Source of the DNA: an uncultured archaeon
GTDB taxonomy: Archaea > Iainarchaeota > Iainarchaeia > Iainarchaeales > CSSED10-239
NCBI GenBank assembly: GCA_964591795.1
Contig: CAZQEL010000019.1
Location: 1 to 16,112, forward strand
Direction of reading: 5' to 3'
Length of the DNA: 16,112 nucleotides
Under the pieces are notes generated by a model that was not told the DNA's origin, did no database searches, and saw only the letters and a list, made by a program, of their open reading frames with translations. The position numbers and the translations under genes were made by a program. Positions 642-15,757 of this stretch are shown one piece after another; the stretch's first letter is position 1; each line of letters begins with the position of its first letter.

Positions 642-830
642 TTATTTTTCAATAGTTATGCACTTTACAGGACAAATATCTGCTGCTTGTTTATTACATC
701 CAACTTCTGCTACTTCAGTTTTAATTGGTTTTGGTTTTTCACCTGAAAATTTCCAATTATCAGGACAAACAGAAGTACAAGCACCACAACCAATACATGC
801 ATCATAATCTTGTTTTATTTTAACTACCAT
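642..830 (-). CDS. Small single-cluster [4Fe-4S] ferredoxin (Pyrococcus/Thermotoga type)
   Basis: 62-aa ORF with CIGCGACTSVCP (CxxCxxC...CP) plus a distal C...CPV. Length and layout match monocluster ferredoxins. Confidence 0.85.
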   Translation of the reverse strand: MVVKIKQDYDACIGCGACTSVCPDNWKFSGEKPKPIKTEVAEVGCNKQAADICPVKCITIEK

Positions 831-956: not shown

Positions 957-3200
957 ATGGATCAGACAAAAATACCTAGAAAAACACCTGGTCAATTGTA
1001 TAGTTCAATATCTGTAGAATCAAGAGATTTTTCTGAAAATGATAATAAACTTTCTAAAAAGATAGAAAATGCATATGTACTTTTTTGTAAAAACATAAAT
1101 AATAGATTTCCTGGACTTGGTAAAGGCAGTAAATATGATGAAAAATTACAAAATTCAGTTGATTTTTTAAAATGGGATTTAAAACCAGAAGAGTATTTTG
1201 CAGCTTATAAATTTACTCTCTTTACAGGAGTATTATTAACAGGAATTATAATATTATTAGCTTATTCTTTTGTACTTCCAAAAATGACAGCCTTGTTTGG
1301 TAGTTCAACATTACCTCTTTTAATAACATTTGGTGTACCACTTGGATTATTTATTTATTGTCTTGATTATTTTAAAAATTATCCACAAAGAAAAGTAAAT
1401 TTAGAAAAAATATATGCCTTAACTTTTGTTCCTGAAATTTTAGGTTATATGATAATGTCTATGAAACTTGTACCTAATTTAGAAAAAGCAATTGAGTTTG
1501 CATCAAGTCATGGACATGGAAAAATAGCTGAAGATCTAAAAACTTTATTATGGGAAGTAAAGGTTGGAATTAAAAGTAGTGTTGCAGAAGCAATTGATGA
1601 ACTTGCATATAAATGGGGAGATATTTCTCAAGAGTTCAAAAAATCTTTAATGAAGATTAGATCAAGTGTAATTGAAATATCTGAATCTAAAAGATTTCAA
1701 ATTCTTGATCAAACAATGGAAGACACATTAACTTCTATTAAAAATAAACTTGAGGATTATGCAAGAAGTCTATCTCAACCAGCAATGGTTATGTTTTATA
1801 TGGGTATTTTACTTCCTTTACTTTTAATTATTATCTTACCGGTTGGTTCTGCATTTTCAAATTCAAATCTTGCAAGACCAATTTATTTAATTTTAATTTA
1901 TAATATTGCAATACCTATAGGTTGTTTGGTTTTTGCAAGAAAGGTTGTAAGGGAAAGACCAATAACATATATTCCTCCTAAAATTCCAGATAACCATCCT
2001 GATATTCCTCCAAAAAATACAATTGTTTTTAAAAATTTTAAAATTAATATTTTTGTATTAATGATAATTGTTGGAACTATTTTAATTGGATCAAGTCTTT
2101 TTTTACAAAATAATTTTGGACTTACAAAACATAATCTTTTAGTAAATGAAGGATATATACTTGAAGATGGTAAAGTTAGTGATGCAGAGTTTATGTGTAC
2201 CACTGAAGAAATATCTCTAAAAGTAACTAATCCAAACTTAAAGTGTGCTACTGAAAGGGATTTTTGGTTAAGACCTGAAAATAACACAACACCTTATTAT
2301 ATTATTTATGGAGTACTTCTTGCAATAAGTCTTTTAATTTCAATTTATCTTTATGGTACAAATATATATAAAAGAAGAGTACAGGTTAAATCTCAAAAAA
2401 TGGAAGTAGAATTTAAGGATGCCTTATATGTAATTGCAAGTAGGCTTGGAGAAAACAAACCAATTGAAGAAGCCTTAAAACATACTAAAAATTTTTTATC
2501 AAAATCTTTAATAGCTCAAGACGTTTTTGCAAAAACTTTGGATAATATAAGAATTATGGGTCTTACTTTAAAAGCATCTTTATTTGACCCTAATTATGGA
2601 GCTTTAAAAAATAATCCATCAAGATTAATAAATAGTGCTATGTTATTAGTAGTTGATTCTGTACAATTAGGGGTATCTGTTGCTGCAAAAACTTTAATGT
2701 CCTATTCTATGCAACTTAGAAATACTGATGAAGTTTCAAAAATGTTAACAAATTTAATTTCAGATATTACTGGAACATTAAATAGTATGGCAAAGTTTAT
2801 TGCACCAATTATTTTAGGAATAACAACTGCTCTTCAAAGAATAGTTATGTCCACTTTAAATTCTATTGCCTCAAGTAACATAATGCAGGATATGGATGGC
2901 ATGGTAAGTGGAATTAAAGAAGGAATAAATGCCTCAGGTATGGGTAATTTAGACGTTAGTAGTGTTTCTGGTTTAGGAGCATCAATTGATCCTACAAATA
3001 TTGCACAGTTTGCTAATTCCACAACTTTTTTAATTATTGTTGCTATCTATGTAATACAAATTGTAATAATTATTGTTTATTTTACAACTATGATAGAACA
3101 AGAAAATTTAATTTTAGCAAAAGTAAGAATTGCTCAAACTCTTCCAGTTGCAACAATTTTATTTATTATGACAACTATTTTTGCAAACATGATTTTTTAA
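957..3200 (+). CDS. Type IV pilus/archaellum-type membrane platform protein (FlaJ/TadC/PilC family, two T2SSF-like repeats), enlarged
   Basis: 747-aa polytopic membrane protein. Two segments have the T2SSF-like pattern of a cytoplasmic helical bundle followed by TM helices: FVPEILGYMIMSMKLVPNLEKAIEFAS...IAEDLKTLLWEVKVGIKSSVAEAIDELA and EVEFKDALYVIASRLGENKPIEEALKHT...AKTLDNIRIMGLTLKASL. It sits directly upstream of a run of class III signal peptide genes. The repeats are separated by an extra loop containing a Cys pair (CTTEEISLKVTNPNLKC). Confidence 0.65.
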   Translation: MDQTKIPRKTPGQLYSSISVESRDFSENDNKLSKKIENAYVLFCKNINNRFPGLGKGSKYDEKLQNSVDFLKWDLKPEEYFAAYKFTLFTGVLLTGIIILLAYSFVLPKMTALFGSSTLPLLITFGVPLGLFIYCLDYFKNYPQRKVNLEKIYALTFVPEILGYMIMSMKLVPNLEKAIEFASSHGHGKIAEDLKTLLWEVKVGIKSSVAEAIDELAYKWGDISQEFKKSLMKIRSSVIEISESKRFQILDQTMEDTLTSIKNKLEDYARSLSQPAMVMFYMGILLPLLLIIILPVGSAFSNSNLARPIYLILIYNIAIPIGCLVFARKVVRERPITYIPPKIPDNHPDIPPKNTIVFKNFKINIFVLMIIVGTILIGSSLFLQNNFGLTKHNLLVNEGYILEDGKVSDAEFMCTTEEISLKVTNPNLKCATERDFWLRPENNTTPYYIIYGVLLAISLLISIYLYGTNIYKRRVQVKSQKMEVEFKDALYVIASRLGENKPIEEALKHTKNFLSKSLIAQDVFAKTLDNIRIMGLTLKASLFDPNYGALKNNPSRLINSAMLLVVDSVQLGVSVAAKTLMSYSMQLRNTDEVSKMLTNLISDITGTLNSMAKFIAPIILGITTALQRIVMSTLNSIASSNIMQDMDGMVSGIKEGINASGMGNLDVSSVSGLGASIDPTNIAQFANSTTFLIIVAIYVIQIVIIIVYFTTMIEQENLILAKVRIAQTLPVATILFIMTTIFANMIF

Positions 3201-3215
3201 AAAAAAAGAATATTT

Positions 3216-3743
3216 ATGATTATTAAAAATAAAAAAGGACAAGCTTTTGAAGCTTATAAACTTTTAATTGCATTTGTAATTGCAGCAGCTATACTTGGTA
3301 TAATTGCAGTTATGATTTCAAAAACAAATAATCAAGCAGTAGTTATTAGTTATCAAAAAATAGAAAATTCATTTTCATCAGCAATAAATAGTCCAATTAT
3401 AAGTATGGAAAAACCTTTTGTTGTTAAGGATGTTTTAATATCTGGAATTATAAGTTATAATAGATTTGAACAACTTGGTAATATTGAACCTGGGTGTTTT
3501 GGATTAATTACGGGACCTGGAATAACAAAAGAAGCATATGGTGCAATGATTGAAAAAAAATACTTAAAAACAGATATTTATTTTAGATGTGGTTTAGGGG
3601 AAATGAATGATAGTTTAATTCCAAATGATATTTGGCCTGGTGTAACTAATTATGAACCATTTGATCAAGACCCAACAATTCTTTGCGAAAAACTTTTTTG
3701 TGTAATGTATATTAACAAAATACCATCAGATTATACACCTTAA
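3216..3743 (+). CDS. Pilin-like protein with class III signal peptide (KKG|QAFEAYKLLIAFVIAAAILG)
   Basis: 175-aa ORF with a short basic leader, G|Q cleavage motif and a hydrophobic helix of about 20 aa. The mature part has 4 Cys. Its N-terminus is paralogous to the 4343 protein (QAF..[YF].LLIA.V.A.A.LG). Confidence 0.7.
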   Translation: MIIKNKKGQAFEAYKLLIAFVIAAAILGIIAVMISKTNNQAVVISYQKIENSFSSAINSPIISMEKPFVVKDVLISGIISYNRFEQLGNIEPGCFGLITGPGITKEAYGAMIEKKYLKTDIYFRCGLGEMNDSLIPNDIWPGVTNYEPFDQDPTILCEKLFCVMYINKIPSDYTP

Positions 3744-3746
3744 ATA

Positions 3747-4250
3747 ATGAAAAATATGAAAAACAATTGGACTAGAAACATAAAATATTTTATAATTGCA
3801 ATCATTATACTTATTCTTGGTTATTTTTTCGGAATAATTATATTAGGTATTATTGCTATTATTATATTATTAATGTCAATTTTATTTGTAATTTCATTAA
3901 TATTTCATAAATCTGTTGATTTATTTTTAAATAAAAAAATAAAATTATTTATTAAAATGTTTTTTTCATTAGTAGTTTCATATGGGTTTATTTTAATTTT
4001 TTGGAATTTTATAAACAAAGTAAAAAGTACAAATATAAAGATAATGCTTATTTGGGCAATTACCTCTTTTATATTTGGATCATTATGGAATATATTAGTT
4101 ATTAAAAAGAAAGTAAGTTATAAAAATAAAGTTTTTGATTATATAGAGGAAAAGTCAGGCCTTAACATAAGAGATATATTATTTATGATAATTATTCCTG
4201 TTATTTTTACTATCTTTTTAAGTATTTTAAAAGGTTTTATAATAATTTAG
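3747..4250 (+). CDS. Small polytopic membrane protein, function unknown
   Basis: 167-aa ORF, extremely I/L/F-rich with about 4-5 predicted TM segments, starting 3 nt after the preceding pilin gene. No recognisable motif. Confidence 0.55.
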   Translation: MKNMKNNWTRNIKYFIIAIIILILGYFFGIIILGIIAIIILLMSILFVISLIFHKSVDLFLNKKIKLFIKMFFSLVVSYGFILIFWNFINKVKSTNIKIMLIWAITSFIFGSLWNILVIKKKVSYKNKVFDYIEEKSGLNIRDILFMIIIPVIFTIFLSILKGFIII

Positions 4251-4272
4251 CATTAAACAATAAAAAAAAAGA

Positions 4273-4280
4273 TTTAAATA
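4273..4280 (+). promoter_or_regulatory. Candidate TATA box (TTTAAATA) with purine-rich BRE-like stretch upstream; internal promoter for the 4343-5092 pilin pair
   Basis: The 92-nt gap after the TAG stop at 4250 contains aaaaaaaaagaTTTAAATA about 60 nt before the ATG. Confidence 0.45.
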
Positions 4281-4326
4281 TCTTTTGTACTTTAAAATTA
4301 ATAGTTTTTATTAATATTTAAACATT

Positions 4327-4333
4327 GAGGTGA
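4327..4333 (+). promoter_or_regulatory. Shine-Dalgarno site GAGGTGA for the 4343 pilin gene
   Basis: GAGGTGA lies 9 nt upstream of the ATG at 4343 and is complementary to the conserved 3' end of 16S rRNA. It is the strongest RBS in the pilus cluster. Confidence 0.65.
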
Positions 4334-4342
4334 ATTTAAAAC

Positions 4343-4882
4343 ATGAAATTAATATATTTAAAAAAAGAAAAAAGACAAACATTTGAAAAAGGACAAGCGT
4401 TTTCAACTTTTCAACTTTTAATAGCAGCTGTTGTTGCTTTAGCTTTACTTGGTGTTTTAATGCCAATTATAAGTAATATTAATCCTGGAACAGGACGTGT
4501 AGTTGATGCATTAAATGAAAGAATAAATACTCAACAAGATCAACCTGGAACTTTAAGTTTAACAGACGATTTAAAAATATCTGGTAGTAAAGATCCTTAT
4601 ATTTCTACAGCAACTGTAACTAAAGGAACTGGTATGGATGCAAAACAAGTTTTATTCATGACAAATGGATATACTACTGATTTTAGTACAACTGGTCCTA
4701 TTTTAGAAATTAAAAATCAAAGTACAATTACATATAAATTTGGAGTTTTATGTCAAACTAATGTAGATGCATTAAATGATTCAATAAGCAATTATTCAAG
4801 TGTAATAAAAGATACTACTTTAGATGGTAGTTTTGATGCTGAAGATATTAGAGTGTGTGTAATTTTCCCTGTTAAAAAATAA
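4343..4882 (+). CDS. Pilin-like protein with class III signal peptide (FEKG|QAFSTFQLLIAAVVALALLG); candidate abundant/major subunit
   Basis: 179-aa ORF with its own promoter-like element and a strong SD. The mature domain is T/S/N-rich with several N-x-S/T sequons and 2 Cys. Confidence 0.7.
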   Translation: MKLIYLKKEKRQTFEKGQAFSTFQLLIAAVVALALLGVLMPIISNINPGTGRVVDALNERINTQQDQPGTLSLTDDLKISGSKDPYISTATVTKGTGMDAKQVLFMTNGYTTDFSTTGPILEIKNQSTITYKFGVLCQTNVDALNDSISNYSSVIKDTTLDGSFDAEDIRVCVIFPVKK

Positions 4883-4894
4883 ATTTGATTAATT

Positions 4895-5092
4895 ATGGCT
4901 ATAATTAAAGAAAAAATAATTAAAATCTTAAAAGATAACAAAGGACAAGCTGAGTCTAATACTATTTTCTTTTTAATTATAGCTGCAATTGTTGCTATTA
5001 TTTTAATTGCAGTTGTTAAACCAATGTTTAATAAATCAGTAAAAGCTTCTGCTAGGCAATCAAATTTGCCTGCTCAAACACCTATAACTTAA
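4895..5092 (+). CDS. Mini-pilin with class III signal peptide (DNKG|QAESNTIFFLIIAAIVAIILIAVV), predicted mature length about 48 aa
   Basis: 65-aa ORF made of a basic leader, KGQ motif, one hydrophobic helix and a short polar tail. It is followed by oligo-T runs. Confidence 0.6.
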   Translation: MAIIKEKIIKILKDNKGQAESNTIFFLIIAAIVAIILIAVVKPMFNKSVKASARQSNLPAQTPIT

Positions 5093-5103
5093 TAAGCATC
5101 TTA

Positions 5104-5127
5104 TTTTTTAATTTAATATTTTTTTTT
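5104..5127 (+). terminator. Candidate oligo-T archaeal terminator after the pilin pair
   Basis: A T6 run (5104-5109) and a T9 run (5119-5127) lie just after the stop at 5092 and before the next TATA-like box. Confidence 0.45.
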
Positions 5128-5140
5128 AAAAAGAAAACCA

Positions 5141-5148
5141 TTTAAATA
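5141..5148 (+). promoter_or_regulatory. Candidate TATA box (TTTAAATA) for a leaderless or near-leaderless 5173-7688 transcript
   Basis: aaagaaaaccaTTTAAATA begins 32 nt upstream of the ATG at 5173. No SD lies between them, which fits a leaderless start. Confidence 0.5.
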
Positions 5149-5172
5149 CTTCTTGTAATATCTTTATAATAT

Positions 5173-5751
5173 ATGTATCCACTTAAAAAAGATAAAGCAC
5201 AAGTAAGTGCTCCTTTTGAATTATTAGTTGCAATAATTGTTATGTTATTTGTAATTATTGCAGGTAATTATGCTTTAAAAAATCTTTCTGAAAATACTTG
5301 TCTTGGAAACAAAAGACAGGATTTTAGTAATCTAATTTCTTCTTTAAGAGAGGTTGTTTTAGGTTCAGACTTAGCATATAGAACAATTGATTTTAAAACA
5401 AAAGCATGTTATAGTCAAGAATATGAAAAAACAATACTTAAAACTGTCCAAGATAAAGTAGTTTGTGAAAGATACTGTGGGTCAGGCACAAGTTGTATAT
5501 TATTATATTATTCTTATATTGATGAAGCAAAATATGAATATAAGTATCCAATTCAACCAATATGTACTTATCTTTCAACTAATTTAGTTTTTGGAACTGC
5601 GCAAGAATGTATTACAGATAGTACTGATAGTACCTTTGAAGCAATTGATCCAACTACGGAAAATATACCCTTAGGAAGTTATAAACTTTTTAAAATTTCA
5701 AGTAGTTCAGATAATGTAAACTATAGAGTTTGTATGGTGAAAATCAGGTGA
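5173..5751 (+). CDS. Cys-rich pilin-like protein with class III signal peptide variant (KDKA|QVSAPFELLVAIIVMLFVIIAG)
   Basis: 192-aa ORF with a basic leader, Ala at -1, Gln at +1 and a hydrophobic helix. The mature part has 8 Cys. Confidence 0.6.
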   Translation: MYPLKKDKAQVSAPFELLVAIIVMLFVIIAGNYALKNLSENTCLGNKRQDFSNLISSLREVVLGSDLAYRTIDFKTKACYSQEYEKTILKTVQDKVVCERYCGSGTSCILLYYSYIDEAKYEYKYPIQPICTYLSTNLVFGTAQECITDSTDSTFEAIDPTTENIPLGSYKLFKISSSSDNVNYRVCMVKIR

Positions 5752-5759
5752 AAAAATAA

Positions 5760-6395
5760 ATGTTTGAATTCACATTATCAAAAGTAAATATGTTAATTTT
5801 TGTAACTGCAATTGCTGTAGTTGTAATTTTTTTTATGAATACTTTAAATGATAATCTTAAAACACGTCAAAGTTATGAAACAGCTTATAAGATTGGTAAA
5901 GAAGTTAAATCATTGATTGATTCAGAAAGTTATTGTTCAGTTAAATTTATTGATATTCCAAGAACCATTAAAATTAATGAAGGTTCTTCTTTAGGATACA
6001 AACTTGGTTTTCAAAATTATGCATTATATGATCAAAATTCTCTAATTGTTTATATTACTGACATTAAAGAAAAAAAAATATTAGGAGCATATAATTTAGA
6101 TTATAATGGAATAATTAAATATTATACTTCAGAATATGATATAGCAAAGTATATTTTTAACCCAAATAACGATGATAAAATTTTTTTTGATCCTAGAAAA
6201 GTAAATGGGAATGAATCCAAAATAATGCTTATTAAAAATGTAAAAGATGATATTAAAACATATCATGTTATACCTTGTGAAAAAAAACAAAGTATATATT
6301 CTTGTAAATTATATGTTTGTGGTGATGGTTCAAATAATTTAGATATATCAGATATTAAATGCCTTCAGGATTTTTGTGTTCAAAATATTACTTAA
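5760..6395 (+). CDS. N-terminally anchored Cys-rich extracytoplasmic protein (no canonical prepilin cleavage motif)
   Basis: 211-aa ORF. An AGGTGA SD lies 10 nt upstream of the ATG. The N-terminus MFEFTLSKVNMLIFVTAIAVVVIFF is a hydrophobic helix without a K/R-G/A|Q motif. The remainder has 6 Cys. Confidence 0.55.
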   Translation: MFEFTLSKVNMLIFVTAIAVVVIFFMNTLNDNLKTRQSYETAYKIGKEVKSLIDSESYCSVKFIDIPRTIKINEGSSLGYKLGFQNYALYDQNSLIVYITDIKEKKILGAYNLDYNGIIKYYTSEYDIAKYIFNPNNDDKIFFDPRKVNGNESKIMLIKNVKDDIKTYHVIPCEKKQSIYSCKLYVCGDGSNNLDISDIKCLQDFCVQNIT

Positions 6396-6415
6396 AAAAT
6401 AGGAAAATAAATTAA

Positions 6416-6943
6416 ATGATTAAAACAAAAAAAGGATTTATTGGAGCAATTGGAGATGATCTTCCTAGTTTAATTCCAATATTTATGGGTTTAGTAATTT
6501 TTTTTGCTGTATTTTTAGGTGTATTTAATAGTTATAATGCTAAAAATAAAGTGTATAATATTAATCAAGAGGCTATTGAGATTTCAATGCAATTAAAATC
6601 AGATCCTGTTATTGTTAATTATAATCATTTTCTGGAAAAATGTGGAAAAATAAAAACAACTAAACATTGGGATGCTTTTTTAGTGGATTTACCTTTAGAT
6701 ACAGAATATTATGAGTCAATAAGTATAAATGATATATCAGATAATGGTTATGAAAATTTTGTAATTAAAAATATAGATGAATTTAATATGGACAATTATT
6801 ATATTTGTAATATTGATCAAGATCTTTTAGATGAACTAAAGGATCCAAATAAAAGAATAATTAATTATTTATATCCAGTAACTCTTCAAAGAGATAATGG
6901 ATATACTACACCTGCAAGACTTTACATTTTAATATGGGATTAA
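6416..6943 (+). CDS. Pilin-like protein with class III signal peptide variant (KTKKG|FIGAIGDDLPSLIPIFMGLVIFFAVFLG)
   Basis: 175-aa ORF with a basic leader, Gly then Phe at the predicted cleavage site, and a long hydrophobic segment. The mature part has 2 Cys. Confidence 0.55.
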   Translation: MIKTKKGFIGAIGDDLPSLIPIFMGLVIFFAVFLGVFNSYNAKNKVYNINQEAIEISMQLKSDPVIVNYNHFLEKCGKIKTTKHWDAFLVDLPLDTEYYESISINDISDNGYENFVIKNIDEFNMDNYYICNIDQDLLDELKDPNKRIINYLYPVTLQRDNGYTTPARLYILIWD

Positions 6944-6950
6944 AATAAAT

Positions 6951-7688
6951 ATGAATTTAATAAAACAAATTAAAGGTCAAGCTGCAATGACAGACTCTTT
7001 ATTTTTTTTAACTATAATTGTAGCGCTTTGTGTTTTATTATTTAATTTTTCTGCAACATATGGAGAAAGAACAGATTTTGCAATAAATAATCTTTATTTT
7101 AAAGAATATACAAATTCAAGTCTTAAGGCTATTTTTTATACAGATATTCCTTTAAATTTTACAAAGGACATAAATAGTTTAGAAACTGATTATTTAATTA
7201 CAGCATTAAAAAGTGATTTCTTACCTGATAGAAAAATAGGAGATAGTGACATTAATTCTTTAAGTAATGGAAATATAAGAGATCTTTCTAAATACAATCT
7301 TTTTTATACAATTAAATCATTAATGTATCCATTACCAAATTATGATTATTTATATTATATACAAGAAATAGATACAACAAATTTTATTTATTTTATGTTA
7401 AAAATAAATGAAGTTAATGATAATAAAATTATTTCTAGATATTATTTATGTGAACCATTAAGTATAAATCCGATAAGAGCTTTGGTTCAAAATGCAAATA
7501 AAATATATTCTTCTTCAACTCCATTAGTTTTTAAATTTAAAGAAAATTCTGGTCAAAATGAAGTAAGAACTGTTTCTAATTTAACTATTTGGCCATCTAC
7601 AAATAGTATTAATGATGAAATTATAACAAATACAAAAATAGAAAATAGTGTTAATTTAAAATGTAAAGAATATATTGAAGGACCTTAA
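6951..7688 (+). CDS. Pilin-like protein with class III signal peptide (KQIKG|QAAMTDSLFFLTIIVALCVLLF)
   Basis: 245-aa ORF with the KGQA motif and a hydrophobic helix. There are 2 Cys outside the helix. The mature domain is N/Y/I-rich with no recognisable fold motif. Confidence 0.65.
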   Translation: MNLIKQIKGQAAMTDSLFFLTIIVALCVLLFNFSATYGERTDFAINNLYFKEYTNSSLKAIFYTDIPLNFTKDINSLETDYLITALKSDFLPDRKIGDSDINSLSNGNIRDLSKYNLFYTIKSLMYPLPNYDYLYYIQEIDTTNFIYFMLKINEVNDNKIISRYYLCEPLSINPIRALVQNANKIYSSSTPLVFKFKENSGQNEVRTVSNLTIWPSTNSINDEIITNTKIENSVNLKCKEYIEGP

Positions 7689-8329
7689 AATTTAAGGCCT
7701 AAATCATCTTCATTATTAGTATCATCTAACTCATCATCATCATCATCTGTTAATAAAGCATGCATTTCTGATTTTTTAGTTTTTTTCTTAGTTTTTTTAA
7801 TTGTTTTTGATTTTTTAGAAATTGATACTTTTGCTTCTTTTTTCTCTTTAGCACTTGCAACTGAATTTCTTATATCTTCATTTTCAAGTTGAACAAAAAC
7901 ATCTTCAACTAATAATTTCACACCATCATAATCTACAGGCACATCATTTTCTTTTGTTGCTCTATAATGTTTACTGTTTTTTATGGTTTGTTCAATTTTT
8001 TTCTTTTTAAAATCATAAAGAGTATCATCATTTTTTACTTGATTATAGATTGCATCTGTAATAGCATCTATATTAGGTGAGATAATTTCAGATAGATTTT
8101 CTAAAACTGATTGTATTTTTTTAGTTTTACCTGTAGTATTTGATTTTTTACCATTAATATTAAGAAGACTTTTTACAGGTTTTTTAGAATTTGATGATAA
8201 TTTATAATCACTTGTATACGTTTTAGAGCTATTTGAGTTAGTAGGCAAATCAGAATAAACAATGTCACCGTTTTCTTTATATTGTCTATAATGCCTTCTT
8301 TCTCGTCTAGGAATTTTATTTGAGTCCAT
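7685..8329 (-). CDS. Lys-rich, low-complexity, probably cytoplasmic protein with an acidic C-terminal tail; function unknown
   Basis: 214-aa ORF with no hydrophobic segment. It has a KKSKTIKKTKKKTKK stretch, then DDDDDELDDTNNEDDLGLKF at the C-terminus. The N-terminus MDSNKIPRR resembles that of the platform protein. An AAGGA lies about 12 nt upstream of the ATG. Confidence 0.6.
   Translation of the reverse strand: MDSNKIPRRERRHYRQYKENGDIVYSDLPTNSNSSKTYTSDYKLSSNSKKPVKSLLNINGKKSNTTGKTKKIQSVLENLSEIISPNIDAITDAIYNQVKNDDTLYDFKKKKIEQTIKNSKHYRATKENDVPVDYDGVKLLVEDVFVQLENEDIRNSVASAKEKKEAKVSISKKSKTIKKTKKKTKKSEMHALLTDDDDDELDDTNNEDDLGLKF
7731..7747 (-). repeat. Trinucleotide microsatellite (TCA)5.7 on the + strand, i.e. 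(GAT/GAC)n, encoding the poly-Asp run
   Basis: tcatcatcatcatcatc is read directly in the sequence, inside the 3' end of the 7685-8329 gene. Confidence 0.8.
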
Positions 8330-8390
8330 ATTTTACATATCCTTCATAATTATAAATATATCTATATAAAATAATATATATAATAAACCT

Positions 8391-8398
8391 TTTAAATC
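8391..8398 (+). promoter_or_regulatory. Candidate TATA box (TTTAAATC) for the 8457-13828 unit
   Basis: It sits in the 127-nt divergent intergenic region. An AAGAGGA SD-like site at 8444-8450 precedes the GTG start at 8457. Other TATA-like strings are present. Confidence 0.3.
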
Positions 8399-8456
8399 TT
8401 TCAATTAACTATTATATTATAATATAGACACTTTATATTTTAAAAGAGGACTTAAT

Positions 8457-8942
8457 GTGCAAAATATACTAACTATAATTTTAAATTATATTTTAATGAT
8501 ATTAAAAGTGATAGGTATATCCTTTTTGTGTGCATTACCTTTTTTCATAATAATTAAGCTTTTAAACAAAAAATATTTAAAACTTAAAAAGAAAACAAAT
8601 CAAATTATTTCAGTTTCTATTATTTTTTATATAATTAATGCAATTATATTAATTTTAATTTATTTTGTTCCAATTATAGGAACTGCTTTTAAAACTATGA
8701 CAACAATAAATATCGTTGTCTTTTTTATATATCATATAATACGATTATTATTAATAAATATTCTTTTAACAGGAATATTTATGATTCTTTCATTAATAAC
8801 CTTTGCAATCTATGATAAATTAAATAAAAAAAATAATTTTACATTAATAAAAAGTTTAACAATAACAAATATAATCTGTTTTGTTTTATTATTAATTTTT
8901 CCAAAAATAATAGCTATAATTATATATTTAATATATTTATAA
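8457..8942 (+). CDS. Small polytopic membrane protein, function unknown (GTG start)
   Basis: 161-aa I/L-rich ORF with about 5 TM segments. The overlapping ATG at 8455 runs into a stop after 5 codons, so GTG at 8457 is the usable start. It ends 14 nt before the giant ORF. Confidence 0.5.
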   Translation: MQNILTIILNYILMILKVIGISFLCALPFFIIIKLLNKKYLKLKKKTNQIISVSIIFYIINAIILILIYFVPIIGTAFKTMTTINIVVFFIYHIIRLLLINILLTGIFMILSLITFAIYDKLNKKNNFTLIKSLTITNIICFVLLLIFPKIIAIIIYLIYL

Positions 8943-8956
8943 AAAGATGATAAAAT

Positions 8957-11900
8957 ATGAATACAAATAAATTAATGTCAATATTTTTTTTAATATTAAT
9001 GATAAATGGAATTTTTGCATCGTCAATTGATCCAACAAGAATTGATACAAAAAATACTTTGAATTTTGCAGATGCTGCAGTTCCAAATCAATATACTTCA
9101 AGTCCTAATTTATCTTCTTGTTATACTGAGGAGTTATCTCCTGAAGCAGTTGAACGTATATGGAATGATATACTGGTAAAGGGGTTTACAGTTGATACCC
9201 TTACAAGTAATCAACCAGCAGACATCACACGTGAAACTTTAGAAAAAAGTGATGTTATAGTTACTTCACAGGATACAAAGAAAGATGATGTTGTTGGTAA
9301 AACAACAATGCCAAATCAAGTTATTAATCCTTTAGAAATACCTACAGTTTTAGGACAAGTTTGTTATGGACCTTTTTCTCAAGGTCTTAATCTTGATAAA
9401 ACACTCAGAGTTGGTAGATGTGAAGGAGATGTAAACTCAGCATGTTATCTTCAAAATGAAGGTCTTTTTAGACAGAATGGAAGATATGGTTTTTTTGATC
9501 AAACATATTCAATAGGTAAAGATATATTAGATATGATAGGTGTTAAAAAATTAAATCAAATTGGTAATGAAATAATAGACCCAACTCTTGATTATAATTC
9601 AAATGTAGATTTAGGATTATTTACTGATATGTCCTATGAAGAATTAGCTGAATTTAGAAGTTCTCAGTTTACTAATAATGATCTTACAGAAATACAAATA
9701 ACAAGACTTAATTTAATTTTAGATGATGCTATTCAAAATAGTATTATAACAAATTCTTTTAATGCAAGTATGGAAAGTACTTGTAATTCTGATAATTGTT
9801 ATATAAACATGTATTCTTTATTTGATAAAGTATTTAATCAATATTATTCTGCAGATTTAGTGTTTACTTCAATTTCTCCAATGCTATGGAAGTTTACAAG
9901 TAAAATATTTAATAAAATACCACTTCCTAAAAAATTAATTACTGAAAATAAAAATGGTTTTAATTCCATTAGAGGTAAAAATGGATTTTTAGATAATCTT
10001 TTAAATAAAAATATGAATCCAGTTCAATCTGCATTAAGCAGTTATAAATTAAATAAAATTACAAAAAATATGGATGTTTATATTGATGGACTTGCTAAAA
10101 GTAATAAAACAATAACAAAAACAATTAATAGATATAATCTTAAACCAGAATTTGATAAATATCTTGAAGCATTAAATTCTAAAAAAAATATTGATACTAT
10201 AAAAAATGAATTTTTCCAAACTGGTACTTTTGCAAAACTTAATAAAGCAAAACAAAGAGTGTTTATGCAATCTGTAATGGAATATGAAGGGAATATTAAA
10301 GCAGTAAGAACAATACATGATATAACTTCAAGTAATATTGATACTATTTTAACTGGATCAAATGCTAGAAAAATATTAATGGATAAAACAAAAACTATGG
10401 ATGATTTCTATGGTTCATTAACAAAAGAACAATATGATAATGTACAAATTGAAGTTTTAAGATCAAATAAACTTAATAAAGAATTTTCTGGATACACAAA
10501 TAATAAATTTAAATGGAAGGATGGTGCAGAAGATATTACTCTTTTAAAAGAAAGAGGTAAAATTATTGCAGGCGAAGACGAATTAATGAATAAGGTTAGA
10601 ATGAAAAATGAAGTTAATCCAATAGAACTTACAAATTCAAGTAAATTTGGTGATTTAATTGAAAAGGGAAATGGTGGAATTGGAGCATATGAAACTCAAA
10701 ATGTAATTGTAAATTTTGCAGATGGTCCTCAAACCATAAAAATGATTGTTCCTTATAAAGAAACAGTAGGTGCAGTAAACCCAGTAAATTATGCAAATAT
10801 TGCTAACTATAATTCAGCAGACATTTTAATTGATTACACTTCAAAAAAAGGAATTACAAAGCAAGTAAGAGGATCATTACTTGATATTTCAGATGTAGAT
10901 CCTGGATTAGGAATTACAGCAAAGAGTGTAAGTGAAAAAGCAGTTATTGCTGCAGATATGTCTAAATATGGAATAGATCCATTAGAAGTATCACTTGGTT
11001 ATATGGATAAACTTGGTATGAAAAAAATTAAAGATGCTGAAAAAGTTACAGAAGGAGTTACAAAAGTATTAACTGACCAAGGATGGGCAACAGGTAGAGG
11101 TCTAAATTATATTAATCAAAGAATGAAACAACAACATATAACAGAATGGAGTAAAAAACCATTTAATATGATAAGTAATTCCGCTAAAGCATATCTTTAT
11201 AATTTTGCATATTGGCAATTTAAAACAGCAGGTACTACACTTGGTGGAGCTTTAGATAAATACAGTATGTTTAGAGTTCCAGAAACATACACTTCAATAA
11301 TTTTTAAACATGGTACTTCTGGAGAAATATACAATGATTCATATATTGATTTCTTTGTAAACGATGGATCTGATCAGGGTGATCTATTCATGAAATATTT
11401 CAATTCCTTAATTTTTTGGATGGTAAACATACCAAAAGAAGCACTTGAAAATACAGAATGGGAAACAACCCAAGGTGTGTCAAACTGGATGACAAATATT
11501 ACAGAAGGACATATAAGAAGAAGTTTTACAAATGATATTGCAATTTTCACAGATTCTTTTAATAATGGGTGTAATACGGCATCATGCCAAATAAAACTTG
11601 GAGATTCAACTCTTCTTGAAAATACAACTAGAAAAAAATCAGTTGATTCAAATATTAGTCAAAATACTGAAATTAATTCTAAATTAGATATAAGTTATTT
11701 GACTGGAAATAGTATTAAAACTACAAGTTATTTATTAGAAAATACATCCGAAGAAAATATGGATGATTATGGTCAAACATTAATAGCTTTCTCACATCAT
11801 ACAGATTATGATGGATCTATGGGTGGTTCAACAACACAGGATTCAGTTAATTTACTTGCTGCACAAAAACAAGAAGATACATGTTCAGCTAAGCTTAGAA

Positions 11901-13828
11901 ATTTAGAAGTTATGGGAGTTCCAATTGGTTGGACAAACACATGGACTGATAAATCATATAGAGCAGGTTTAGTTGCTGCTGGATTTTCAAATATTGCATA
12001 CTATGCTTTAAGTGCACCACAACATGGTATAATGTTAGGTGCTGTATTTGGTGATGTTATACCACAAGTAACAATCGTACCTCAAATATATAACTGTGTA
12101 GATGATGAAGAAGGATATTATACACATTTCTTTGTTGCAAAAGAAGAATTTGAAAGAATAGAGAAAGATCCTAAAAATAAAATAGGAGATGTAATTTCAA
12201 AAGGAGCTGATTCTGTACAAAAAACATTAACAAATGTTACTAAAAATACAGAACTTCAAAACTCAATTACAAAAACAACTGAAGAAGTTAAAAACTTTGC
12301 AGAAACAAAAATTAAAGATAACCCAATAATGCAATCAAGAATAGAAACTCAAGGAGATACATCAGCTTCATTAAAAGGAAAACTTTTCTTTTTTGAACTA
12401 GGTGCATCATCAACTTGTAGAGCAAGTGGATATAATGACAAGGGTGTAGAACAATTAATTGATTCAAAATTAGGAGAAACCTTAGTTATTGATAAAGAAG
12501 AAGGAACCATATCAATTGTTGATAAAGATGGAAATATTAAAGAAATTATAGGTGTTGAAAATAAAGATTGGGTTAGATTAATTGCAACAAATTTAGGTAT
12601 ACCAGCTAAAGTTATTCCCCATAGTTTATCTTACATACCAGTACCTGATACAAATACACCTTTATTTAACATGGATGTTTTTGGTAATTTAAAAATAGAA
12701 GATATTGATTTTTTAAATTGTTTAAAATCAAATTATTTTGAACAAACAGGTCTTGAAATGACAGGTAATACTCTTACTGATTATTTAGGATCTGTAAAAC
12801 AAATAACTACAACAAATACAATAAATCCAAACTCACAATATGATGCAATACCAAAAGGAAGACAAGGAACAAATGAAATTGTTGTAGAAGGAACACCAAG
12901 AAAGATTGCAAATGGAGAAAATGCAAGAGTTACTGTTCTTGGAAATAGAATAACTAAAGTATATCCAATAGAAGGACAAGATGTAACTTTAGGTAAGAAT
13001 ATTGCAATCCAATTTGAAAGGGGACAATTAATCTATAATGGAGAAAAGAATAGTTACATTATGTGGGTTGAACAAACTTATGTAATGCATCAATCTGAAA
13101 TAAAAGGAATGGATATAACTCCAATTAAAGAAACTAACCCAGTTACAGGTTGTGAAGAAAATGCCTTTGAAATGGCAGTTAATCCTGACGCAAGTAATCC
13201 TGAGGCTATTGCTAAATCTACAGAAATGAATAAAGCTTTACAAAAAGTTGGTCCTTTCCAAATGTTTGAAACTGCAAGTAAGACTTTTATTTTCTATACA
13301 ACAGATGCTCCAGAGTGTCAAAATAGAATGAAGATTATTGATAAAAAGACAGGTGTTGTAACTGACCAAGCAATTGATGGAATAATAGCCACTCCTGATG
13401 GATTTATTGTTACAACTGAGGATGGTCAACAACATAACTTTGCTTTTTCAGCAGAGGATGGAGTACCTAAACTTAAGTATAATGACCAAATTGAAACTTT
13501 ATTGTCTGCTCAAGGTAAAAACGGAGCCTTTTGGTATGATCCAAAAACAGGTAATTGGACTACTGAAAACGGACATATGATTCCATTTAATCCTGAATAT
13601 AGGGATGGGGTTACCTTTAAAGTAGGTGAGGATGGAAAAACATATGGAACAACCATACAGAACCTAATGAATCCGTTCTCTGGAACTGGAAGCGATAGTG
13701 GAGGAAGTTTTAATATCCCTTTAACTCCTGAAAAATTCTTACCATTTGTGCTTTATGTTTTAGCAATAATGGGAAGTTTTATGTATTTGTTTAATAGAAA
13801 AGAAGAATTTTTTAAAAGAAAAAAATAA
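8957..13828 (+). CDS. Giant secreted, membrane-anchored surface protein (candidate adhesin or S-layer-like protein)
   Basis: 1623-aa ORF. The N-terminal Sec-type signal is MNTNKLMSIFFLILMINGIFA|SS. The C-terminus has TPEK + FLPFVLYVLAIMGSFMYLF + NRKEEFFKRKK (TM helix plus basic tail). There are 14 Cys, several in close pairs, and many N-x-S/T sequons. I recognise no catalytic motif. Confidence 0.8.
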   Translation: MNTNKLMSIFFLILMINGIFASSIDPTRIDTKNTLNFADAAVPNQYTSSPNLSSCYTEELSPEAVERIWNDILVKGFTVDTLTSNQPADITRETLEKSDVIVTSQDTKKDDVVGKTTMPNQVINPLEIPTVLGQVCYGPFSQGLNLDKTLRVGRCEGDVNSACYLQNEGLFRQNGRYGFFDQTYSIGKDILDMIGVKKLNQIGNEIIDPTLDYNSNVDLGLFTDMSYEELAEFRSSQFTNNDLTEIQITRLNLILDDAIQNSIITNSFNASMESTCNSDNCYINMYSLFDKVFNQYYSADLVFTSISPMLWKFTSKIFNKIPLPKKLITENKNGFNSIRGKNGFLDNLLNKNMNPVQSALSSYKLNKITKNMDVYIDGLAKSNKTITKTINRYNLKPEFDKYLEALNSKKNIDTIKNEFFQTGTFAKLNKAKQRVFMQSVMEYEGNIKAVRTIHDITSSNIDTILTGSNARKILMDKTKTMDDFYGSLTKEQYDNVQIEVLRSNKLNKEFSGYTNNKFKWKDGAEDITLLKERGKIIAGEDELMNKVRMKNEVNPIELTNSSKFGDLIEKGNGGIGAYETQNVIVNFADGPQTIKMIVPYKETVGAVNPVNYANIANYNSADILIDYTSKKGITKQVRGSLLDISDVDPGLGITAKSVSEKAVIAADMSKYGIDPLEVSLGYMDKLGMKKIKDAEKVTEGVTKVLTDQGWATGRGLNYINQRMKQQHITEWSKKPFNMISNSAKAYLYNFAYWQFKTAGTTLGGALDKYSMFRVPETYTSIIFKHGTSGEIYNDSYIDFFVNDGSDQGDLFMKYFNSLIFWMVNIPKEALENTEWETTQGVSNWMTNITEGHIRRSFTNDIAIFTDSFNNGCNTASCQIKLGDSTLLENTTRKKSVDSNISQNTEINSKLDISYLTGNSIKTTSYLLENTSEENMDDYGQTLIAFSHHTDYDGSMGGSTTQDSVNLLAAQKQEDTCSAKLRNLEVMGVPIGWTNTWTDKSYRAGLVAAGFSNIAYYALSAPQHGIMLGAVFGDVIPQVTIVPQIYNCVDDEEGYYTHFFVAKEEFERIEKDPKNKIGDVISKGADSVQKTLTNVTKNTELQNSITKTTEEVKNFAETKIKDNPIMQSRIETQGDTSASLKGKLFFFELGASSTCRASGYNDKGVEQLIDSKLGETLVIDKEEGTISIVDKDGNIKEIIGVENKDWVRLIATNLGIPAKVIPHSLSYIPVPDTNTPLFNMDVFGNLKIEDIDFLNCLKSNYFEQTGLEMTGNTLTDYLGSVKQITTTNTINPNSQYDAIPKGRQGTNEIVVEGTPRKIANGENARVTVLGNRITKVYPIEGQDVTLGKNIAIQFERGQLIYNGEKNSYIMWVEQTYVMHQSEIKGMDITPIKETNPVTGCEENAFEMAVNPDASNPEAIAKSTEMNKALQKVGPFQMFETASKTFIFYTTDAPECQNRMKIIDKKTGVVTDQAIDGIIATPDGFIVTTEDGQQHNFAFSAEDGVPKLKYNDQIETLLSAQGKNGAFWYDPKTGNWTTENGHMIPFNPEYRDGVTFKVGEDGKTYGTTIQNLMNPFSGTGSDSGGSFNIPLTPEKFLPFVLYVLAIMGSFMYLFNRKEEFFKRKK

Positions 13829-13829
13829 A

Positions 13830-13852
13830 TTTTTCTTTTTTTACTTTTTTTT
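13830..13852 (+). terminator. Candidate oligo-T terminator after the giant ORF
   Basis: T5, T7 and T8 runs follow immediately after the TAA at 13826-13828. Confidence 0.45.
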
Positions 13853-14005
13853 ATTTGGATTTCTAATAGGATTTTTTTTAATAATTTTATTTGGATTATT
13901 TCTACCTCTTTCATTTGTTTTTTCTTTTTTAAGATTACTATTTTTTTTATTTGTTATTCCAAAAGCATCTGTCTTAAATATTGATTTTCGTCTCATAATT
14001 GGCAT
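13841..14005 (-). CDS. Small, highly basic hypothetical protein (54 aa), not in the supplied ORF track
   Basis: My own translation is MPIMRRKSIFKTDAFGITNKKNSNLKKEKTNERGRNNPNKIIKKNPIRNPNKKK. A strong SD (AAAGGAGAG, reverse complement of 14012-14020) lies 8 nt upstream of the ATG (14005-14003). The stop is TAA at 13843-13841. Confidence 0.45.
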   Translation of the reverse strand: MPIMRRKSIFKTDAFGITNKKNSNLKKEKTNERGRNNPNKIIKKNPIRNPNKKK

Positions 14006-14046
14006 GTTTATCTCTCCTTTAAATTATTAGTTTACACATATATATA

Positions 14047-14054
14047 TTTAAACA
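14047..14054 (+). promoter_or_regulatory. Candidate TATA box (TTTAAACA) for the lysS operon
   Basis: It lies about 40 nt upstream of the ATG at 14095, followed by an AGGTGA SD at 14082-14087. Confidence 0.4.
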
Positions 14055-14094
14055 TATTTATATATAAATATATATTGTTTTAGGTGAAAAAATT

Positions 14095-15603
14095 ATGGCA
14101 AGATTAGATGAATACGAAGAAAGTAGAAAAAAAAACTTTCAAAAATTAATTGATAACAATATAGATCCCTATCCTTACACTTTTAATAAATCTCATGAAG
14201 CAAAGGATATTCAAGAAAAATATAAAGATTTAAAAGAAGATGAATATTCAAATGATATTGCAAGTATTGCTGGTAGAATATTAATTATTAGAAACTTAGG
14301 TAAAATTGCATTTTTAGATGTTTATGATAAAACTGGAAAAATACAAATTGTTTTAAAAGTAGCTAATTTAAACGAAAAAGATTTAATTGTTTTAAATTCT
14401 CTTGATAGAGGAGACATTGTTGGTGTTTCTGGAAAAATATTTAAAACAAAAAGAGGAGAAATTTCAATCGATGCTGATTCTCTAACATTTTTATCAAAAG
14501 CATTTATGCCTCTTCCAGAAAAATGGCACGGTATTAAAGATTCTGAACTTATTTATAGAAAAAGATATCTTGATTGGATGGTTAATAAAGAATCAAGAGA
14601 TATTTTTATTATTAGAGCAAAAATAATTTCTTTAATGAGAAAATTTTTAGATGATAAAGGTTTCTTAGAAGTTGAAACTCCACTTCTTCAACCATTATAT
14701 GGTGGAGCTAATGCAAGACCTTTTGTAACTGAAAGTTTTGTATGGAAAAGAACTTTATATATGGCAGTTTCTCCTGAACTTTATTTAAAAAGACTTCTTG
14801 TTGGTGGTTTTGAAAAAGTTTACACTATTTGTAAAAGTTTTAGAAATGAAGGTGTAGATAAATCTCATAATCCTGAATTTACAATGCTTGAATTTTATGA
14901 AGCATATAAAGATTATAATTCAGCAATGGATATTTTAGAAGAAATGCTTGAGTATGTTATTATAAATATTTTTGGAACAACAAAAATAACATATGATAAC
15001 AAAGAATTTGATTTTAAAAGACCATGGCAAAAAATGACAATGAAGGAAGCAATATTTAAATTTTCAAACATAGATATTGATAAATTATCTGATGATGACA
15101 TCAAAGAAATTCTAACTAAAAACAGAATTGAAATTGAAGATTATAAAAGAGGTCTTGCAATAGCTGAAATTTTTGAATTCTATTGTGAAGATAAATTAAT
15201 TGGACCAATACATATAATTGATCATCCAAAAGAAACAACCCCACTTTGTAAATTACATAGAAATGATAAGACTTTGATTGAAAGAAATGAGCCTTATTTA
15301 AATAGTATGGAGCTTGCTAATATTTATAGTGAACTTAACGATTCATATCTTCAAGAAGAACTTATGATTGAACAAAAAGATCAAGGTAAATCTAAAGGAG
15401 AGAATCATCCTATTGATGCTGAATTTATTGAATCATTAAAATATGGTATGCCACCAGCATATGGTATAGGAATGGGTATTGATAGACTTGTAATTCTTTT
15501 AACAAATTCACAAAATATAAGAGATGTAATATTATTCCCTTTATTAAAAGAGGAAGATAAAACTTCAAAAGATTCGAAGGAAAGTGATAAAAATGGTGCA
15601 TAA
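14095..15603 (+). CDS. lysS: Lysyl-tRNA synthetase, class II
   Basis: 502-aa ORF. The N-terminal DPYPYTF and an OB-fold anticodon-binding region (AGRILIIRNLGKIAFLDVYDKTGKIQIV) are present. Class II motif 2 is FRNEGVDKSHNPEFTMLEFY and motif 3 is GIGMGIDRLVILL. Overall collinearity with bacterial and eukaryotic LysRS-II is good. Confidence 0.9.
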   Translation: MARLDEYEESRKKNFQKLIDNNIDPYPYTFNKSHEAKDIQEKYKDLKEDEYSNDIASIAGRILIIRNLGKIAFLDVYDKTGKIQIVLKVANLNEKDLIVLNSLDRGDIVGVSGKIFKTKRGEISIDADSLTFLSKAFMPLPEKWHGIKDSELIYRKRYLDWMVNKESRDIFIIRAKIISLMRKFLDDKGFLEVETPLLQPLYGGANARPFVTESFVWKRTLYMAVSPELYLKRLLVGGFEKVYTICKSFRNEGVDKSHNPEFTMLEFYEAYKDYNSAMDILEEMLEYVIINIFGTTKITYDNKEFDFKRPWQKMTMKEAIFKFSNIDIDKLSDDDIKEILTKNRIEIEDYKRGLAIAEIFEFYCEDKLIGPIHIIDHPKETTPLCKLHRNDKTLIERNEPYLNSMELANIYSELNDSYLQEELMIEQKDQGKSKGENHPIDAEFIESLKYGMPPAYGIGMGIDRLVILLTNSQNIRDVILFPLLKEEDKTSKDSKESDKNGA

Positions 15604-15751
15604 ATGTATAAAATGTAATAAAATAATCGATTCAACAAAACTTTATTGTAGAAAATGCGAAGCACAAATTAAAAGAAATGAAGAATTTAAAAAACAAAGA
15701 GAAGATGTATGGAATAAAGCAGATTTCTTTCAAAGACAAAGACTTAAATAA
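15593..15751 (+). CDS. Small zinc-ribbon protein (52 aa), not in the supplied track
   Basis: My own translation is MVHKCIKCNKIIDSTKLYCRKCEAQIKRNEEFKKQREDVWNKADFFQRQRLK. It has a CxxC-x11-CxxC ribbon plus a basic helical tail. It overlaps the lysS 3' end by 11 nt in another frame, and an AGTGAT SD-like site lies just upstream. Confidence 0.5.
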   Translation: MVHKCIKCNKIIDSTKLYCRKCEAQIKRNEEFKKQREDVWNKADFFQRQRLK

Positions 15752-15757
15752 TTTTAT

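Follow-up and report, generated by a model that had tools for sequence, protein, structure and literature searches.

The whole of contig CAZQEL010000019.1 from an uncultured archaeon, 16,112 nucleotides (the window), carries, at positions 957–13828, twelve genes encoding a platform protein, seven pilin-like proteins, a charged protein on the minus strand, two small membrane proteins and a giant exported protein. Comparison with related genomes indicates that these genes belong together as one module. We consider it somewhat more probable than the alternatives taken together, at roughly 55%, that the region encodes the structural part of an archaeal type IV pilus-like system and that this system is a core trait of the Iainarchaeia/Diapherotrites. 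An earlier note, made from the sequence of the window alone, had listed a platform, seven pilin-type proteins, two polytopic membrane proteins and the giant. Our open reading frame (ORF) calls agreed with this inventory in positions and coordinates, and hydropathy and domain scans confirmed it. The cluster covers 12,872 of the 16,112 bases, which is the 80% of the window that the note had assigned to surface proteins. Pfam and NCBIfam scans, covering 15 proteins of the window, found no enzymatic domain in the twelve cluster proteins, again as the note had read them, and returned only weak matches to T2SSF, Flp_Fap and DUF4013.

We assessed the linkage between the pilus block and the giant gene in a scan that took one genome per species. 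A relative of the giant was found in 119 species; 78 loci were kept and searched by tblastn with all components, and the pilin genes were counted in the 41 loci whose sequence reaches 7 kb or more upstream of the giant gene. The pilin cluster adjoins the giant gene in 39 of these 41 species loci. At least six of the seven pilin genes lie upstream of it, with strand and order kept, in 36 loci, and three to five lie there in two more; in one locus (L061) the pilin block is inverted and sits just downstream, still adjacent. An inverted block that adjoins the giant gene was likewise found in L057. The charged minus-strand gene lies upstream of the giant gene in 44 of 49 loci, and the gene for a 161-residue membrane protein does so, on the same strand, in 54 of 60.

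This arrangement extends to divergent genomes. Homologues of the giant with identities of 70%, 49% and 28% each stand behind the corresponding series of genes. Platform homologues with 43–45% identity, on contigs of 0.5–1.2 Mb, are followed by a gene for a product of 1540–1635 residues, the C-terminal half of which is 26–29% identical to the giant of the window. Even remote giants (E ~1e-21 to 1e-29), from genomes of 43–47% GC, follow a platform gene and a pilin-like series, and the order of platform, seven pilin-like genes, charged gene on the minus strand, small membrane protein and giant is kept in genomes ranging from 24% to 47% GC. Every gene of the module has a separate series of orthologues in the class. 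The loci checked include the complete genomes of Ca. Forterrea multitransposorum and AR10 and the single-cell genome of Ca. Iainarchaeum andersonii. The housekeeping genes on either side vary by clade, yet pilin cluster and giant keep their order, which argues that the adjacency is under selection and not merely inherited. The earlier note had joined the two blocks from adjacency only and had considered that they might never co-occur in relatives; the opposite was found, and at the level of sequence comparison the reading of pilus block and giant as a single module stands up.

The first gene of the module (957–3200, plus strand) encodes a protein of 747 amino acids (aa) in which hydropathy predicts about eight transmembrane (TM) segments and two cytoplasmic helical domains; a loop of about 60 residues (aa 386–444) contains two cysteines. 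Its own match to PF00482 (T2SSF; aa 165–295, E = 1.4e-3) scores 19 bits and is below the Pfam cut-off of 25.2, so that its assignment depends on homologues, of which more than 378 are full-length. PF00482 was matched by 17 of 21 sampled full-length homologues (42–80% identity; best E = 1e-6), and several homologues are annotated as T2SS F family; a PDB sequence profile search with the platform gave no meaningful match. On this basis we assign the 747-residue protein to the platforms of the FlaJ/TadC/T2SS-F type. The FlaJ/TadC-like identity given in the earlier note is therefore upheld through the homologues and not through the window's own protein. A 23-bp tandem repeat (890–945) lies directly upstream of the platform gene.

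A T2SSE ATPase of 758–764 residues is encoded directly upstream of the platform in L006, L007, L008 and about 12 further loci. It matches PF00437 with E = 5.6e-18 and is 64–72% identical between clades. In the Forterrea-like clade, which comprises the window, L004, L005, L010 (Ca. Forterrea multitransposorum), L012, L013, L015, L019, L022 and L028, a ferredoxin gene takes the position of the ATPase gene and a lysyl-tRNA synthetase (LysRS) gene comes after the giant. We infer that the ATPase gene has been displaced from the cluster in this clade, where the motor is putative. In several Diapherotrites the homologue of the cluster ATPase is about 1270 residues long and contains intein and LAGLIDADG homing-endonuclease domains (PF14890, PF14528); P0176, P0177, P0181, P0198, P0204 and P0205 are among these intein-bearing proteins. 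A second motor set, consisting of PAC2, two T2SSF genes and a gene for a 491-residue T2SSE ATPase, was seen in clades other than the Forterrea-like one, on the opposite strand and 4–6 kb downstream of the giant gene (L006, 15947–20001, and about 35 of the loci L009–L086). The window lacks this set and has lysS behind the giant gene.

The seven proteins whose genes start at 3216, 4343, 4895, 5173, 5760, 6416 and 6951 each have a single N-terminal hydrophobic helix according to hydropathy. In five of them [KR]-[GA]-Q directly precedes the helix, and K-G-F occurs in one more. By inspection we compared the N-termini with those of orthologues in L004–L008 and two remote genomes, and every orthologue group was found to have its own N-terminal motif, conserved across clades. 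Judged from these alignments, the pilin-type motifs are far beyond chance, and we read the seven N-termini as class-III-type and prepilin-like. The scans of the window proteins gave no match to an A24-family prepilin peptidase (FlaK/PibD/EppA). They also gave none to archaellins (FlaA/B) or the FlaF/G/H accessory proteins, and we do not class the system as an archaellum.

All seven genes are on the plus strand. The first, pA (3216–3743, 175 aa, 4 Cys), begins its predicted mature part at KKGQ/AFEAYKLLIAF and has orthologues in L004–L008 and in 38 scanned loci, with the group motif KGQ-AF..(L)LI. For pB (4343–4882, 179 aa) the corresponding site is KGQ/AFSTFQLLIAAVVA, a motif nearly invariant between clades. 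The mini-pilin pC (4895–5092, 65 aa) consists of the helix and a short tail, and would retain about 48 residues once cleaved at the predicted KG/Q site. Its orthologues, of 57–71 residues, are present in every locus and have [KR][GA]Q followed immediately by the helix; from its size, and by analogy with Flp and the short pilin of Methanococcus maripaludis, we infer that pC is a candidate for the main subunit of the filament. In the stretch separating pC from pD, a gene for a 198-residue protein is inserted in L088 (865–1461) and L089 (2949–3545). The next protein, pD (5173–5751, 192 aa, 8 Cys), has the site KAQ/VSAPFELLVAII and the group motif [KR][GA]Q.SAPFELLVA. A very short leader, MFE/FTLSK, characterizes pE (5760–6395, 211 aa), and its group has a leader of three or four residues followed by FTLSK.N.LI. 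The atypical pF (6416–6943, 175 aa) has KKG/FIGAIGDDLPSLIP before the helix, and its motif GF[IL]G.[IL]GDD[LI]PS, followed by [LI].P, is kept in all clades including the remote ones. The last of the series, pG (6951–7688, 245 aa), has the site KGQ/AAMTDSLFFLTIIVA and the group motif KGQ-AA.TD.L.FL.

The giant gene (8957–13828, plus strand) encodes a protein of 1623 residues, which we analyzed by hydropathy, alignments and AlphaFold2. It has only two hydrophobic segments, one at the N-terminus (aa 3–27), where a Sec-type signal spans aa 1 to about 24, and one at the C-terminus (aa 1593–1613), which is a predicted TM anchor (13733–13795, plus strand; hydropathy 2.08, modelled as a helix) followed by the basic tail NRKEEFFKRKK. 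An N-domain (aa ~55–320) contains the invariant residues Cys55, Cys155 and Cys163 and the motif YSLFDK.FN. The next part (aa ~320–740) is variable, basic, helical and free of cysteine, with 64 K+R in 420 aa. Strong conservation marks aa 740–1180, which include NDGSDQGDLF, FSHHTDYDG and NCVDDEEGYYTH and have the consensus Y.D...DFF.N.GSD.GD.F among relatives, and all-beta domains occupy aa 1125–1540. The alignments contain at least ten invariant cysteines, which fits an exported protein. BLAST detects the C-terminal half between clades but not the middle.

Neither the giant nor seven remote relatives contained a Pfam domain, and a profile search found no PDB sequence relative of the giant. An exhaustive profile search of 1.84 billion proteins with the C-terminal half collected 208 cluster representatives, and the family is confined to Iainarchaeia-like genomes. 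Nearly all full-length relatives have 1200–1730 residues and match at the C-terminus, and the architecture is common to the family. Directly before the TM helix is the motif FN[IL]P..PE (aa 1587–1592, 13715–13732) with P1588 and P1591 invariant, which looks like a sorting signal in sequence. We rejected sorting of the giant by an archaeosortase, since three giant C-termini did not match any NCBIfam CTERM model even at E <= 10 and a sortase-family gene is nearby only in L007 and L079. In L007 (1–6470), an exosortase/archaeosortase-family gene (TIGR04178, 42 bits, cut-off 23) is located just upstream of the ATPase gene and adjoins a gene for a surface protein of more than 2797 residues with weak SpaA and CarboxypepD_reg matches; the sortase gene of L079 is related.

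Structure prediction was carried out for two overlapping parts of the giant. The AlphaFold2 model of aa 740–1623 (26 sequences) had a predicted local distance difference test (pLDDT) score of 67 overall and about 90 for aa ~1180–1540, where DSSP assigned six to seven runs of four beta-strands. Within this part, aa ~1280–1543 (12794–13585, plus strand; pLDDT ~90) form a candidate beta-propeller by DSSP and Foldseek. The top PDB matches of the C-terminal model in Foldseek were beta-propellers (LRP6 YWTD, Kelch, WD40), the best with E = 3.8e-4 and probability 0.38. We assign no fold to the giant because the template modelling scores of these matches were very low, and the models suggest a propeller-like domain close to the membrane. 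The model of aa 1–1200 (48 sequences; pLDDT 73.7, predicted template modelling score 0.63) was mixed alpha/beta with long helices, and its Foldseek searches gave nothing significant (best E = 0.72 in PDB and 0.058 in BFVD).

Between the pilin series and the giant, on the minus strand, is the gene for a charged, Lys-rich protein of 214 residues (7685–8329) without TM segment, with 43 K+R, 37 D+E and the N-terminal sequence IPRRERRHYR. It is convergent with pG, with an overlap of 4 bp, and divergent from the gene starting at 8457. The motif [VI]PRRxRR[FH]YR is conserved between clades; the protein ends in C-terminal Zn ribbons in L007 and L008 and is fused to an N-terminal polytopic membrane domain in L088 and L089. 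These features, together with hydropathy, lead us to regard it as a conserved, predicted cytoplasmic component that is membrane-tethered at times. A ParE toxin pair is inserted between pG and the minus-strand gene in L089 (7273–7794). The earlier note had pointed to a peptide shared by the N-termini of the platform and this protein, MDxxKIPR[KR]. The peptide is real in the window, yet it is not conserved: the two proteins agree at 4 of 9 positions in L004 and 2 of 9 in L005, the match is absent in other clades, and there the platform has the N-terminal motif SPG.[LI]Y, which the charged protein does not have. We therefore rejected the peptide as the mark of a common partner, its similarity not being kept in L004–L008, and treat it as a probable chance resemblance.

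Each of the two small polytopic membrane proteins has about four TM segments by hydropathy. The gene for the 167-residue protein (3747–4250, plus strand) is a clade-specific insertion found only in the window, L004, L005 and Forterrea-like loci, and its product had no family match; for both reasons we rejected it as a candidate prepilin peptidase. The gene for the 161-residue protein (8457–8942, plus strand) ends 14 bp upstream of the giant gene, and its product matched DUF4013 weakly (E = 2.6e-3).

If the region encodes a type IV pilus-like machine, its parts could act as follows. A prepilin peptidase encoded elsewhere would cut after [KR]-[GA], and the 760-residue T2SSE ATPase would turn the platform, which would lift the pilins from the membrane into a filament. 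The mini-pilin (4895–5092), with 48 mature residues, would be the bulk subunit, and the six larger Cys-containing pilin-like proteins would be minor or priming subunits. The giant would be exported through Sec and stay in the membrane through its C-terminal helix, with the conserved membrane-proximal half (aa 740–1590), which ends in the propeller-like beta domain, docking to the machine or the filament and the less conserved distal part (aa ~320–740 and the N-domain) facing outward for binding or anchoring. The 161-residue membrane protein would probably join in the docking of the giant, and the charged PRRxRR protein would act at the cytoplasmic face. The steps given to the peptidase, the ATPase and the pilins are drawn from established knowledge of type IV filaments, and the orientation of the giant from its topology and conservation gradient. 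The giant may ride the filament, form a basal collar or be an adhesive surface partner.

Several observations weigh against a pilus-like system of this kind. Genes for the ATPase and the prepilin peptidase were found neither on the contig nor within 10 kb on either side in the closest relatives, and the best 120 of 757 ATPase homologues included none on a Forterrea-like contig. No pilin family model in Pfam or NCBIfam scored above threshold for any of the seven proteins; pC and pE matched Flp_Fap (PF04964) with E = 0.044 and 0.021, respectively, at about 14–15 bits against a cut-off of 32.2. Such sub-threshold pilins agree with the remark that DPANN pilins are unrecognizable by sequence (PMC6393860). 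The residue at −1 of the pE site is Glu in the Forterrea-like clade (window 5760–5771, L004, L005) and Gly in L006–L008 (..G/FTLSK), and pE may be unprocessed in the former. In pF, 12 polar or acidic residues separate the putative cleavage site from the helix. In L072 and L079, 2 of the 41 loci, the giant has no pilin cluster within 10 kb, and the modelled beta-propeller of the giant is a weak assignment.

The giant might instead be an S-layer or main envelope protein and not a part of the pilus, its linkage reflecting either the clustering of envelope genes or the passage of the filament through the lattice. We consider this unlikely. A Sec signal, a C-terminal TM anchor, a large size and a mildly acidic composition overall are typical of many archaeal S-layer proteins, "S-layer-like" proteins are listed in many archaeal type IV pilus (T4P) loci (PMC4858521), and the giant is present in essentially all class members, as expected of a wall protein. 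The signal peptide and anchor are, however, not specific to S-layers. The earlier note had allowed for the giant turning out to be an ordinary S-layer protein, and we found no match to an S-layer family or structure in Pfam, in PDB sequences or, at significance, in Foldseek. Its model is mixed alpha/beta with long helices instead of arrays of immunoglobulin-like domains, and its 11 N-glycosylation sequons in 1623 aa are not an enrichment. The protein is strongly conserved and has motifs of catalytic or metal-binding appearance, whereas S-layer proteins generally evolve fast. These properties and the near-universal linkage to pilin genes do not support its identification as a known S-layer protein.

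Type II secretion systems (T2SS) and Com systems have one major plus several minor pseudopilins, and the combination here of one mini-pilin with six larger proteins resembles that layout. A short pseudopilus that takes up DNA or other macromolecules or serves export, with the giant as receptor or cargo handler, would also suit the predicted dependence of Forterrea on external nucleotides (PMC5905446), and the basic, Cys-free middle of the giant could, by its composition, bind polyanions. We nevertheless find it quite improbable, as Pfam and NCBIfam detected neither a ComEC- or ComEA-like gene nor a nuclease among the cluster genes, a second, retraction-type ATPase is missing from the cluster, and the idea draws on nothing but analogy. 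Very improbable, in our estimate, is that the two blocks are unrelated neighbours in an inherited gene order. They do form separate transcription units with a minus-strand gene between them, L072 and L079 have the giant without a nearby cluster, and the ferredoxin and LysRS flanks are likewise syntenic inside the Forterrea-like clade. The module order nonetheless stays when these housekeeping flanks change between clades, the inverted blocks of L057 and L061 are still beside the giant, and the order is kept even where the giant is detectable only by profile.

We then compared the proposed pilus-like system with known filaments. In Methanococcus maripaludis, the Epd pilus is built from the EpdA-E pilins, the EpdJ/K platform and the EpdL ATPase; its operon encodes several pilin-like proteins, the major pilin is very short, and the ATPase and platform genes can sit apart from the pilin operon. 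The system described here is alike in having a multi-pilin operon, a short candidate major pilin and separable motor genes, and large exported accessory proteins are predicted in T4P loci (PMC4858521). It differs in that the platform is a single protein of about 750 residues instead of two, the seven pilins match no known pilin family, the giant has a C-terminal anchor and neither a DUF2341 nor a PilY-type domain, and the set includes the charged PRRxRR/Zn-ribbon protein. Tad/Flp systems share a helix-like mini-pilin of about 50 mature residues, which pC fits in size and architecture, larger pseudopilin-like proteins, a platform of the TadB/TadC type and a T2SSE-family ATPase. The Flp_Fap similarity of pC and pE is nevertheless weak and sub-threshold (E = 0.04 and 0.02), and the cleavage motif is [KR]-[GA]-Q here instead of G/xxxxEY. 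Genes for a secretin and for TadZ- or TadD-type proteins are missing from our module, which belongs to an archaeal single-membrane envelope, and Tad/Flp systems have no counterpart of the giant.

The tip adhesins PilY1/PilC, which accompany the minor-pilin priming complex of bacterial type IVa pili, resemble the giant as large Sec-exported non-pilin proteins encoded beside minor pilins, with a less conserved middle and a conserved C-terminal all-beta domain, which is a beta-propeller in PilY1 and weakly propeller-like in the giant; the acidic NDGSDQGD loop of the giant also resembles a calcium-binding site. The giant had, however, no Pfam match to the PilY1-type domain PF05567, its propeller matches were weak and generic, with PilY1 outside the top 50 Foldseek matches, and aa 1–1200 have no analogue. 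PilY1 also does not have the TM helix and basic cytoplasmic tail in which the giant ends, and because of this ending a location at the tip would need release or an unusual insertion. We therefore rejected the PilY1/PilC identity. Archaeal T4P loci often hold large exported or C-terminally anchored proteins predicted to be adhesins or S-layer-like, and "S-layer-like" large proteins with a C-terminal anchor are predicted in T4P loci of Thermoproteales and other archaea (PMC4858521). In DPANN archaea, T4P "dark matter" islands contain pilins that are unrecognizable by sequence (PMC6393860). The loci of Thermoproteales and DPANN, known like ours from prediction only, combine an ATPase and TadC with unrecognizable pilins that have conserved Cys and with a large, C-terminally TM-anchored exported protein, as the present ones do; no sequence relationship was found.

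The genes around the module were as the earlier note had named them. Domain scans confirmed a 4Fe-4S ferredoxin (642–830, minus strand) and a class II LysRS (lysS; 14095–15603, plus strand), and identified a GNAT acetyltransferase of 189 residues (55–624, minus strand). On Joint Genome Institute (JGI) contigs with an identical platform protein (L001–L003), GNAT is called with 148 instead of 189 residues, and these contigs run on past it with three further small genes. The note's picture of a streamlined, AT-rich archaeon was also borne out: the GC content of the window is 18–31%, the nearest kin are Ca. Forterrea multitransposorum and Iainarchaeum metagenome-assembled genomes, and the source organism is a DPANN archaeon of the Diapherotrites related to Ca. 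Forterrea. No tRNA or Rfam RNA was found within the window.

A very basic ORF of 54 residues (13841–14005, minus strand) lies between the giant gene and lysS, and its counterpart in L004 (14964–15116, minus strand) has 50 residues and a common start, MP.MR.K. An ORF of 55 residues with two CxxC pairs, Zn-ribbon-like (15584–15751, plus strand), overlaps the 3′ end of lysS and is kept in L004 at 16721–16879 with the common ending WNKADFFQRQ.LK. From 15756 to 16112 (plus strand) runs the N-terminal part of a DHH-family phosphoesterase gene truncated by the contig end; a PF01368 gene is at the corresponding position in L004 and L005. A TATA-like box of the TTTAAAT type is present in each of the gaps 831–956, 4251–4342, 5093–5172, 8330–8456 and 13829–14094, and a GAGGTG-like motif precedes several start codons. 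The boxes suggest, as sequence motifs, internal promoters ahead of pB and pD.

Among archaeal T4P loci, the combination of an ATPase and TadC with divergent pilins and a large protein that is exported or anchored is already known (PMC4858521), and for DPANN it has been noted in general terms (PMC6393860). Papers found on Diapherotrites say no more than that these archaea have type IV pili (PMC8561730), and pili are not mentioned in the Forterrea genome paper. In the literature searched, no earlier description of the conserved 12-gene order was found. What is new here is a twelve-gene module with an orthologue series for each gene, near-universal in Iainarchaeia-like genomes, together with the displacement of the ATPase gene in the Forterrea-like clade and a large accessory family for which no relative was detected by sequence or structure.

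Most DPANN archaea are uncultured, and many envelope genes in their genomes lack annotation; the module may bear on their contact with hosts or their nutrient uptake. Cell contact or host attachment, which the earlier note had suggested, is a hypothesis for what the module might do. Members of the class are mostly proposed to be free-living in work cited in PMC5905446, and because the module is class-wide in a group considered mostly free-living, it would not specifically be a symbiosis trait, and its presence does not in itself point to symbiosis. We also raise, tentatively, the possibility that the giant is the first of an undescribed class of pilus-coupled surface devices, in which a conserved propeller-like base would engage a dedicated seven-pilin filament while the distal part binds a partner cell, a surface or a polymer such as DNA. 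If so, the giant, being near-universal in the reduced-genome Iainarchaeia, would be their main interface with the surroundings and would bear on whether they are free-living or host-associated. The giant family is well suited to structural and localization studies. Should the giant prove to be no more than a wall protein, it would be a candidate component of the cell envelope in this class; if it is the working end of the filament, it would offer molecular access to how an entire class of archaea lives.

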